Shown here one piece after another: positions 60,850-63,365 of a stretch of DNA of 64,000 nucleotides (positions within the stretch are counted from its first letter, which is position 1; each line of letters begins with the position of its first letter). Source of the stretch: Spirochaetia bacterium (GTDB lineage: Bacteria; Spirochaetota; Spirochaetia; CADAEX01); assembly GCA_963662795.1 (NCBI GenBank), contig OY759746.1, positions 2,688,001 to 2,752,000 on the forward strand. The letters run 5' to 3'. A program made the translations under genes and the position numbers. A model generated the notes under the pieces. That model was not told the origin of the DNA. It ran no database searches and saw only the letters and a list, made by a program, of their open reading frames with translations.

Positions 60850-63141
60850 ATGCAGGAACTTAAAACAGATAATACAAGAAAAGAGGTACTGGGAATCAAA
60901 GGCATGCACTGCGCAAGCTGTGCCGCAAATGTTGAAAGAACTGTCAGAAAAATTCCCGGCATCAGGGATATAAATGTAAATCTTACTGGTGAAAGGGCTG
61001 ATATCTGGCTTGAATCAGGAAAGGTGAGAATATCAGACATAAGGGAAGCGATTACAAAAGCCGGCTATATCCCGGTTGAGCTTGAAGATAGTGATGAAAA
61101 AGAGATAAGGAAAAACAGGGAATTGAAGGATATGGTAAAGGATTTTATCATATCAGCTGCGGCAGCCGTTCTCCTCTTTTATATTGCAATGGCACCCATG
61201 ACAGGGCTTAACCTCCCTTTTCCGTCGTTTATTGAGCCGATGACATATCCCCTTAACTACGGGATTGTCAGTTTACTCCTTGTCCTGCCTTCGCTTTATG
61301 CAGGAAGAAGGTTTTTTACTGCAGGCATTCCATCTCTTTTCAGGTTAAGCCCTAATATGGACAGCCTTGTGGCTGTAGGTGCTTCTGCCGCGATTTTATA
61401 CAGCATCGTTAATCTGGTTTTGATTGCTTCCGGAAGGACTTCTGCTGTAGAGCAGTTATACTTCGAAACTGCAGGAGTTATCATTACCCTTATTCTTCTC
61501 GGAAAAATTCTTGAGAGCAGGGCAAAAAGAAAAACAAGCCGCTCTATCAAGGCGCTGATGAATCTGACTCCGGATAGCGCGGTACGATTGGTTGATGGCA
61601 ATGAGAGGGAAACACCTGTTTCTGATCTTGAACCGGGAGACCTGATAAGGGTAAAACCCGGCGGCCGTATACCGGTTGACGGCATCATAACTGAAGGATA
61701 CAGCGCAGTTGATGAATCAATGCTTACAGGAGAAAGCCTGCCGGTTGAAAAAAATGCAGGATCAGCTGTCACAGGAGGCAGTATAAATAAAACAGGCAGT
61801 TTTATTTTCAGGGCAGAGCGTGTAGGACGTGACACTACACTCGCAAGGATTATCAGACTGGTGGAAGATGCCCAGAACAGTAAGGCTCCGATAGCGCATC
61901 TTGCCGATGAAGTTTCCGCATGGTTTGTCCCTGCCGTGATGCTTGCCGCACTGATTTCTGCGTCCGCATGGATGATTACAGGTGCGGGAATACCTTTCTC
62001 CATGACAGTTCTTACTGCCGTGCTGCTTATTGCATGTCCCTGCGCGCTTGGACTTGCCACTCCCACTGCCATAATGGTAGGCACCGGAAGGGGAGCCGAG
62101 CTTGGAATACTTGTGAAGACAGGTGAAGCACTGCAGACTGCAGCCGGCATAACTGCAGTCATTTTTGACAAGACCGGGACACTTACGGAAGGGAAACCTG
62201 TTGTTACCGACATTATACCACTCCGGATGAGTGAGGACGAATTTCTCTCTCTAATGGCATCGGCAGAGACCTCATCGGGACACCCCCTTGCAGAGGCTAT
62301 TGTCCGTAAAGCCGGCGAAAAGAAACTTGATCTTAACCCTTCGTCAGATTTTAACGCAATACCCGGCGGCGGCATCAGGGCTTCTGTCATTTCCGCCGGA
62401 GGCAGGGTTGAAGTGCTTGCCGGAACAAAAAAACTGCTTGGCAGGGAAGGAGTCAGGCTTGAATCATCAGAAGCGGAAGGTCTGTTTAAAAGAGGAGGTG
62501 AGCTTGCAGAGGATGGGAAAACTCCTATTTATATGGCCGTAAATGAAGCCGGGGAATGGATGGCCGCAGGGCTTGTCGCGATGAGCGACAGCTTAAAGCC
62601 CGGAAGCAGGGAAGCGGTAGCCGGGCTTAAAAAAATGGGAATAAAATCATATATGATAACCGGGGACAATGAAAAAGCGGCCCAGGTAATTGCGCTTGAA
62701 GCGGGAATTGAAGAAGTACGCGCGGAAGTACTGCCGGAAGACAAGGCTGCTGAAATTGTACGTCTGAGGGAACAGGGTTATATTGTTGCCATGGTAGGCG
62801 ACGGCATAAATGATGCGCCTGCCCTTGCAGCCGCGGATGTAGGCATCGCAATAGGAAGCGGCACTGATGTCGCGATCGAAAGCGCGGATATAATTCTTGT
62901 AAAAAGTGATGTGAGGGACGCTGCCGCAGCGATTATGTTATCCCGCGCTGTACTCGGCAACATAAAGCAGAATCTTTTCTGGGCATTTGCATATAATGTA
63001 CTGCTGATACCTGTAGCGGCCGGTGTTCTGACCCTTTTCGGCGGGCCGCTTTTAAATCCAATGTTTGCGGCGGGGGCAATGTCTCTCTCGTCTGTTTCAG
63101 TTGTAAGTAATGCATTAAGATTAAGGAGTTTCCGTAAATGA
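60850..63141 (+). CDS. copA: Copper-translocating P1B-type ATPase
   Basis: [39 protein letters not shown] 60850 with GGAGG RBS. Confidence 0.94.
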
Positions 63142-63365
63142 AAAGGATAATATTTATGAGGCGGTGTTTGCCTTACTGAATGAAGTGACTAATGCATTAA
63201 GACTAAAGAGTTTCAAGAAATGAGGCGGAAAAGAAAAAACAGTTTTGTTTTATAGACCGAGTGTAGTTAGTAATGCTTTAAGACTAAAGAGTTTTCGCAA
63301 ATGAAAAGGAGAATATTTATGCGGAGGTTTTTGCCTTACTGAATGTGGTTACAAATGCCCTTTGA
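63100..63365 (+). repeat. Tandem array of diverged copA 3' ends (42-bp coding copy + 39-40-bp tail, period 81-82 bp)
   Basis: Copies start at 63100 ([13 protein letters not shown]), 63182 (EVTNALRLKSFKK*), 63263 ([13 protein letters not shown]) and 63345 (VVTNAL*). Tails 63142-63181 and 63305-63344 match at 36/40 positions. Confidence 0.9.

Follow-up and report, generated by a model that had tools for sequence, protein, structure and literature searches.

The subject of this analysis is an array of repeated gene ends lying directly downstream of copA, a copper-type P1B ATPase gene, in a Spirochaetia bacterium (contig OY759746.1 of GenBank assembly GCA_963662795.1). The window, by which we mean the whole stretch of DNA analysed, comprises 64,000 nucleotides (nt), C1:2688001-2752000 of a genome that consists of one contig of 3.93 Mb; positions without a contig prefix are those of the window. 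By its domain set, which is present (Pfam E-values: HMA 2.8e-13, E1-E2_ATPase 9.5e-58, HAD-type hydrolase 6.4e-37), the copA product is a P1B-type copper ATPase, with the metal specificity a prediction. Its length of 763 amino acids (aa) is taken from a stored protein (P0001, 100% identical); the open reading frame (ORF) itself begins with TTG at 60772. We define E as the last 13 codons plus the stop codon of copA, 42 nt in total, and a unit as E with a tail of 39-40 nt. E occurs in full three times (63100, 63182, and 63263) and in shortened form a fourth time at 63345, the tails between these copies being 40, 39, and 40 nt long. The gene and the repeated ends are laid out as follows.

60850..63141, plus strand: copA, copper-type P1B ATPase gene, 763 aa (Pfam HMA, E1-E2_ATPase, Hydrolase)
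63100-63181, plus strand: unit 1, the live copA end with a 40-nt tail
63100..63141, plus strand: E1, the live last 13 codons and stop
63142..63181, plus strand: tail 1 (type t1), 40 nt, noncoding, with a Shine-Dalgarno-like AAGGA and a 7-codon mini-ORF, MRRCLPY and stop
63182-63262, plus strand: unit 2, EVTNALRLKSFKK and stop with a 39-nt tail
63182..63223, plus strand: E2, displaced end EVTNALRLKSFKK and stop, of a type that serves as the live end in a groundwater contig
63224..63262, plus strand: tail 2 (type t2), 39 nt, with no detectable kinship to t1
63263-63344, plus strand: unit 3, a displaced end with a 40-nt tail
63263..63304, plus strand: E3, displaced end, 35/42 nt identical to E1
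63305..63344, plus strand: tail 3 (type t1), 36/40 identical to tail 1
63345-63365, plus strand: unit 4, VVTNAL and stop
63345..63365, plus strand: E4, the truncated and most decayed end copy, VVTNAL and stop, 13-14/21 in register

The E copies are 71-83% identical to one another and encode one common 13-residue end, apart from K/R, S/T, and single V/E or L/F replacements. Between E1 and E3, 7/42 nt are different, which correspond to six synonymous codon changes and one R/K replacement. Unit 4 (21 nt) has 13-14 positions in common, in register, with the opening 21 nt of units 1-3, and just 0.013-0.09% of positions in 2 Mb of the genome match equally well. Tandem Repeats Finder describes the array as 2.9 copies with a period of 81 (63108-63345). 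The original prediction for this locus, made from the sequence of the window, had given the array coordinates, the copy positions, the 36/40 match of the tails and the count of six synonymous changes and one R/K, all of which were reproduced on recomputation.

The array exceeds what chance placement yields. In a DNA-level scan of 5024 long ORFs, each with its final 42 nt set against the next 10-400 nt and with random placement as a control, copA scored 35/42, the maximum of the control being 26/42. A contig of 102,689 bases from sequencing run X3, probably the source run, covers the array with 0 differences, and one of 12,328 bases from run X6, which belongs to a separate study and carries another organism label, also spans it with 0 differences; run X1 yielded a single 166-nt contig that lies inside the array and bridges nothing. 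An assembly chimera, the artefact considered in the original prediction, is excluded as far as contigs can show, because the contigs of these two studies cross the whole array in full agreement; the array is real.

The displaced copies have changed in the manner of coding sequence. Random substitutions in E are expected to be synonymous in 20-22% of cases, and the synonymous share of changed codons is 6/7 for E1 versus E3, 2/6 for E1 versus E2, and 3/6 for E2 versus E3; for the two stacked ends of the congeneric genome G002 it is 7/10. Live ends compared between species give 7/10 (the present genome, G000, with G002) and 6/7 (G002 with G001, a third species of the genus). Clear decay is confined to a V-to-E change in E2, an L-to-F change in the second copy of G002, and the truncated E4. 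A displaced type has furthermore been found in use: a 507-nt contig (depth 4.5) from groundwater metagenome run X2 joins position 63101 to 63184, omitting exactly 82 nt or one unit, and runs copA straight into the unit-2 type end, reading ...SVSVVTNALRLKSFKK and stop. The live end of this contig, VVTNALRLKSFKK and stop, is intact. It differs from G000 at 2 positions in the 84 nt of copA directly upstream of the array (97.6% identical) and at 16 positions in 179 nt of array; nine of these 16 were itemised, and the four that fall inside E2 or E3 are all synonymous. Strains differ in the end attached to copA, with the unit-2 type live in one X2 contig, a single contig of depth 4.5. Taken together, these comparisons support the view that the downstream copies are former live copA ends. 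The original prediction had reasoned in the same way that the noncoding copies evolved as functional ends, and here the mostly synonymous changes and the X2 allele with its live unit-2 end bear it out. Its expectation of copy-number alleles is matched by the X2 contig, which is exactly one unit shorter (one contig, depth 4.5), and the tally of synonymous against nonsynonymous changes that it had proposed gives displaced-versus-live comparisons that resemble live-versus-live ones in being rich in synonymous changes.

Homology among the tails was judged by shuffle tests with 2000 shuffles per comparison. The t1 of G000 is homologous to the first tail of G002 (p 0.0005), and t2 is probably homologous to the second (p 0.0145); none of four comparisons between t1 and t2 detected a relation (p 0.17-0.93). 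This agrees with the original prediction, which had set tail 2 apart from tails 1 and 3 as a different type, and it speaks against the visual impression that all tails form one family, which was rejected. A derivation of the tails from decayed native sequence following unit 4 was also rejected, local alignments being no better than shuffles (p 0.27-0.61). The order of t1 followed by t2 is common to G000 and its sister species G002, which are about 80% identical in DNA; on this evidence the two-unit core is most likely old, predating the split of the two species and inherited by both, rather than a recent insert.

The best-conserved stretch of t1 is the 3' end of the tail, TACTGAAT, which adjoins E at three junctions. 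It is present at 3/5 tail-to-E or tail-to-flank junctions, with the related forms TACTGAA and ACCGAGT at the other two. No conserved hairpin was found in the tails (39-43 nt), whose DNA folds range from -1.1 to -4.5 kcal/mol; tail 1 has a weak 5-bp stem that is found neither in tail 3 nor in the t1 of G002. Tails 1 and 3 (63142-63181 and 63305-63344) both carry AAGGA(G), a spacer of 7-8 nt, an ATG, and a 7-codon ORF (MRRCLPY or MRRFLPY, and stop), in which three of the five observed changes are Arg-to-Arg (AGG/CGG). The mini-ORF is not kept in the t1 of G002.

The distribution of the array is narrow. A 1-kb query against 40 relatives matched past the copA stop codon only in G002, at the same locus, where two ends are stacked: the first with a 43-nt tail, then VVSNAFRLRSFKK and stop with a second tail. 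G001 has a single copA end, and a survey of the family found a displaced end at 2/16 copA-like loci (14 genomes). A tail-agnostic pattern, requiring two N-A-L-R-L ends 55-80 nt apart, retrieved one locus from 185,579 species genomes, L037, which has the array of G002. With a looser pattern, 22 loci were retrieved from metagenomes and 2 from viral sequences, all of them unrelated repeats and 0 of them copA ends. It should be noted that these pattern scans rely on AT-rich codon choices, and arrays in other codons or divergent forms can escape them. Within the 3.9 Mb genome there is no second copy of the unit, of E or of a tail, other matches being exact words of <=17 nt, at chance level. The plasmid, phage, and viral collections hold no unit or tail, and the tail-to-end junction pattern was without a viral match. 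The search for tails and units that the original prediction had suggested thus uncovered no site beyond the copA 3' flank in the genome, the 40 relatives, or these collections, contrary to what mobile units would lead one to expect. A 35-nt match to tail 1 in a further relative (G038) was discarded: it is intergenic, lies on an unrelated contig, and has a 17-nt exact core as expected by chance for a search of this size. A protein search for close CopA homologues returned only a second, identical-length member of the same cluster.

Displaced ends are not restricted to copA. A protein-level scan identified a displaced end within 360 nt at 5/3686 ORFs of >=150 aa, and a DNA-level scan to 400 nt agrees; the five loci are copA, a biotin-carrier-type gene, a sigma-54-type regulator, a GDPD-type gene, and a recent 102-bp duplication. 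Judged from these scans, displaced ends are general in this genome and independent of the gene. At the four other loci the displaced ends are of unrelated sequence, and their junctions have no motif in common with copA. Ten tandem arrays of period 40-200 are present, not counting clustered regularly interspaced short palindromic repeats (CRISPR), and of these four straddle a stop codon, five lie inside ORFs, and one is intergenic; none of the units involved was traced to a source elsewhere in the genome.

The biotin-carrier locus (G000:C1:1250280-1250406, L065, minus strand; L069:1905-2200) is the most informative on order. In G000 it reads end, tail B, end, tail A, decayed end, and in G002 end, tail A, end, tail A, end, tail B, decayed end. 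The A tails are related to each other and so are the B tails (p<0.0005 for both), A versus B being not significant. All intact ends encode VATGQALAELE and stop, with 9 synonymous and 0 nonsynonymous differences as counted from the listed sequences, and the decayed copy at the far end lies against the ribosome-binding site of the gene that follows. Since the cassettes are arranged differently in the two species, whole units have been duplicated and reordered between them, and their order is therefore not a reliable record of events. This runs against the original prediction, which had taken the copA array for an ordered record of integrations.

At the sigma-54-type regulator (G000:C1:2638658-2639169, L067) there are 6.5 units with a period of 79 nt, each the last 17 codons and a 28-nt tail. 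The units are a mosaic of mostly synonymous variants, including AGA to CGG, and decayed arrays are found in G001 and G002. The last unit is fused to the remnant of a small downstream gene, of which both of these species have an intact copy; an initial reading of this unit as an older, longer gene end was withdrawn when the extra sequence proved to be that remnant. The GDPD-type gene (G000:C1:1769749-1769883, L066; L072, L073) has a new end and a 20-nt tail ahead of an older end, which corresponds to the live end of G001 and whose other strand encodes the last codons of a convergent gene. This overlap with the 3' end of the convergent gene led us to drop the GDPD-type displaced end as evidence of selection on silent copies. 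The 102-bp duplication (G000:C1:1791179-1791378, L068) exists in 2.0 copies, 98% identical, and spans a stop codon and a terminator-like hairpin; on its sequence it is a young, plain duplication at a gene end. Unit periods are 79-85 nt at the copA, biotin-carrier, and sigma-54 loci, with a coding part (36-51 nt) and a tail (28-47 nt) that both vary, and 62 and 102 at the two other displaced-end loci. As a separate observation, a 32-nt unit repeats directly after the stop codon of a 381-codon open frame from G000:C1:3914446 onward.

Within the window the array has the following neighbours.

60161..60655, minus strand: redoxin/thiol-peroxidase-like gene, divergent from copA, with 86% identity (tblastn) to the Redoxin protein beside copA in L037
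63374..63402, plus strand: promoter-like site ahead of the next gene, from a consensus scan only (10/12)
63424..64000, plus strand: start of a 413-aa regulator with a HisKA_7TM N-terminus and a GerE/LuxR C-terminus, the first of three genes absent here in the sister species

The divergent redoxin gene on the 5' side of copA is kept in G002. Downstream, three species have in common a block of genes for a pyridoxal phosphate-dependent Cys/Met-metabolism enzyme (OAHS), DUF2784, and an old yellow enzyme, and it is the interval between copA and OAHS that differs: in G002 it holds only two units, in G000 four units and genes for the HisKA_7TM/LuxR regulator, an FGE-sulfatase-like protein, and a CHB_HEX_C protein (C1:2751424-2755046, L062), and in G001 csoR and an HMA membrane protein. 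At the OAHS promoter the sequences of G000 and G002 become homologous again. These two genomes are 78% identical at the DNA level in copA and 81.6% in the flanking block; for G000 and G001 the values are 72% in copA versus 90.1% in the adjacent block (L063 vs G000:C1:2749444-2760000). This jump in identity implies at least one replacement on the copA side, in which a diverged version took the place of one lineage's copper operon. By these alignments the array sits at a recombination and synteny breakpoint.

Machinery and other known array types were searched for. As the original prediction had stated, the window has no recombinase: none was found among the five Pfam families searched (PF00589, PF01797, PF00665, PF01609, and PF00239). 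The nine matches to the PF00589 tyrosine recombinase all lie outside the window, the nearest at C1:3077180, >320 kb away, and the PF00239 serine recombinase has 0 matches in the genome. Transposase matches (one IS200-type, 22 rve-type, and 34 DDE_Tnp_1-type) also lie outside the window without exception; insertion sequences are abundant in this genome, many of the DDE_Tnp_1 and rve matches being identical. No second copy of E or of a tail that could act as a phage attachment site (attP) was found in the genome. The longest identical block common to E1-E3 is 6 nt, and E1 and E2 share 13 nt; an overlap of 6-8 nt is enough for some recombinases. Cargo and structured ends are absent between the repeats, where the tails measure 39-43 nt, and neither a larger parent element nor the same element at other sites was found in the genome, the relatives, or the public collections scanned.

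An RNA element was rejected, as a comparison with Rfam gave nothing up to an E-value of 1, the RNA folds no better than shuffled sequence (z -0.05), and no terminator is predicted inside the array. So was a CRISPR-like array, because the repeats have diverged at 17-21% of positions and spacer 1 resembles spacer 3 (90% identical); the true CRISPR array of this genome (C1:2328009-2331972) is built on another repeat, 32 nt long, with a period of 66-67 nt. A diversity-generating retroelement does not fit differences that are not adenine-specific, and the only RVT_1 match (C1:2158129) is ~590 kb away. Copying from a paralogue was dismissed as well, neither the second P-type ATPase (C1:2234824) nor the rest of the genome having a similar end or tail.

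The array consists, by these sequence comparisons, of discrete units with codon-clean ends and two unrelated, old tail types, and copy number and order vary between relatives. We consider it rather probable, at somewhat better than an even chance, that it is a small, old, and still-changing array produced by homology-driven "C-terminal displacement" and reshaped by unequal recombination, the mechanism of origin being our inference. Before the split of G000 and G002, recombination with E as the homology would have set an end-plus-flank of type t1 ahead of one of type t2, and the older end would have been shunted downstream with the gene undamaged. Later unequal E-to-E recombination, within the chromosome or with DNA of related strains, would duplicate, delete, and reorder units, and a displaced end would occasionally be promoted to live again; this turnover would account both for the codon-clean copies and for the differences in copy number. 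The process would be homology-driven and gene-independent, without cargo and without need of an element-encoded recombinase. Arrays of this kind would persist at gene 3' ends because rearrangement there keeps the reading frame intact.

Several points weigh against this explanation. In the X2 contig the junction falls right at the 5' margin of E and has 0 shared letters, which places it outside the 13-nt identical block in which homologous exchange would be expected to fall. The conserved TACTGAAT next to E could be a candidate recombinase site, neutral displaced ends as old as the species split should show more decay, their rescue by turnover being our conjecture, and a period of 79-85 nt at three independent loci is not predicted by plain homologous exchange. 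On the side of the data, G002 is a metagenome-assembled genome whose array is known from assembly alone, and the shorter allele rests on one contig of depth 4.5. The unfitting points (the X2 junction, TACTGAAT, the low decay, and the period) sustain a site-specific or ruler-based mechanism as a minority reading. In one version, which we hold to be possible but doubtful, an undescribed, homology-guided "gene-end cassette" process would gain, lose, and reorder ~80-nt units whole at several housekeeping genes, perhaps via small single-stranded or circular intermediates with a length ruler. The ruler is suggested by the periods of 79-85 nt at three unrelated loci with differing coding and tail lengths.

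Four further explanations share parts of this evidence. The original prediction saw in each 81-82-nt unit a minimal nonautonomous integrative element, or the collapsed scar of a larger one, which brought a replacement copA end and which a recombinase supplied in trans had inserted at the V-V-x-N-A-L codons. Such an element might leave an indel like that of X2, precisely one unit long, in phase with the unit boundary and lacking junction overlap, and a conserved TACTGAAT at tail ends beside E at 3/5 junctions; unrelated tail types would be expected of different inserts, discrete cassettes are permuted at the biotin-carrier locus, and a precedent exists in the ssrA tandem islands of Dehalococcoides with their gene-3'-end direct repeats (PMC3146451). 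We nevertheless regard it as distinctly unlikely, given that no unit or tail was found away from the copA 3' flank in the genome (other matches <=17 nt), the 40 relatives, or the plasmid, phage, and viral collections, that the window has no recombinase and the genome no serine recombinase, with the nearest tyrosine recombinase >320 kb off, that the tails lack a conserved hairpin or inverted repeat, and that the longest identical block of E1-E3 is 6 nt. The two-unit core is moreover most likely inherited, the divergence of t1 and t2 between species being close to that of neutral DNA, which favours inheritance over recent mobility, and no junction motif links copA to the four other loci. Serial import is an unlikely account, if a shade less so: ends with a short flank would have come from diverged relatives by homology-facilitated illegitimate recombination, joined at one side through homologous exchange within the body of copA and at the other through an illegitimate or micro-homology joint just ahead of the resident end, leaving a stack of foreign alleles. 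The allele-like synonymous changes among the ends, the unrelated tails, an X2 junction without homology and a copA region that has been replaced before (G001, 72% vs 90.1% background) all suit it; set against them are the 84 nt of copA 5' of the array, which are 97.6% identical between G000 and X2 with no diverged import tract upstream of unit 1, the improbability that repeated illegitimate joints should fall by chance at one codon with similar tails of 39-43 nt, and the shared t1, t2 order in two species, which indicates one old event and not many.

Another account, already disfavoured and in our view improbable, is that strand slippage did no more than duplicate one end-plus-flank unit in tandem and that the copies then decayed neutrally. 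It cannot readily produce a t1 and a t2 that are not detectably homologous though each is recognisable across species, in units that are not homologous along their full length; the synonymous excess, the unit 2 type live in a relative (X2), and the permuted cassette order at the biotin-carrier locus also speak against it, even though this genome does generate such duplications (the 102-bp example over a stop codon, with 2.0 copies that match at 98%), the identity between tails 1 and 3 is 90%, and stop-straddling duplications are those that selection tolerates. That the repeats function in place, as a regulatory module of the 3' untranslated region, through the translated mini-ORF MRRCLPY, or by a read-through or frameshift extension ending in the CopA tail, seems very improbable. 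The AAGGA(G), the ATG 7-8 nt further on, and the 7-codon ORF in tails 1 and 3, with 3/5 changes Arg-to-Arg, could be taken for it, as could the open frames that lead from tail 1 into E2 and from the E2 stop into E3; yet the mini-ORF is not kept in the t1 of G002, there is no Rfam match, no unusual RNA fold (z -0.05), and no terminator in the array, and any extension merely repeats the same peptide.

If C-terminal displacement is the correct reading, displaced-end arrays would not be limited to polymorphic toxin loci or integrase-borne islands and would also occur in miniature at ordinary genes. They would mark recombination breakpoints, the interval after copA holding three gene sets in three species, and would keep earlier or foreign alleles of the last codons, usable as markers of past exchange. 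For annotators they would supply a null model, in which stacked gene ends need not mean a mobile element. Homologous recombination alone leaves two points unsettled, the codon-clean silent copies and the recurrent period of ~81 nt.

Among known systems, the prophage e14 in icd of Escherichia coli exemplifies an element that inserts in a gene 3' end and restores the gene. The ssrA tandem islands of Dehalococcoides (PMC3146451) have 20-bp direct repeats and a serine integrase, with some members lacking the integrase. The copA array resembles such 3'-end integrative elements in its stacked gene-end direct repeats downstream of a live gene and in a replacement end that may differ synonymously. The elements carry or need an integrase, bring kilobases of cargo, recur in other genomes, and have an identical core, whereas the copA array has no recombinase in the window, no recurrence elsewhere in the collections scanned, and no cargo or structured ends; the 6-nt identical blocks of E1-E3 might still suffice as a core for some recombinases. 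With ordinary tandem repeats it shares the head-to-tail units, the one-unit difference between relatives, and the most decayed copy at the edge, and it departs from them in its two unrelated spacers and codon-clean repeat, as well as in the order permuted at the biotin-carrier locus. The closest parallel is the C-terminal displacement of rhs (and cdiA), in which a new 3' end arrives on a short conserved piece and the old end comes to lie silent downstream, forming arrays (Jackson et al. 2009, PMC2935791). For rhs, homologous recombination at the conserved piece has been proposed, without a known dedicated recombinase, and the displaced pieces are conserved in evolution. The likeness is that the copA displaced pieces also start with a conserved gene fragment and continue with tails unrelated to their neighbours, and that the attached end varies between strains (for copA, in one X2 contig of depth 4.5). 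In rhs the tips are long, code for toxin domains that differ from one another, come with immunity genes, and are considered adaptive; the copA units, unlike these, are 81-82 nt long, encode the same 13 residues, hold no gene and no evident benefit, and sit at a housekeeping copper pump. Displaced-end arrays are thus known, and what appears to be new is the miniature, cargo-free form at an ordinary gene, where the copA array would follow the displacement logic of rhs at an 82-nt scale by a mechanism that we propose from its sequence.

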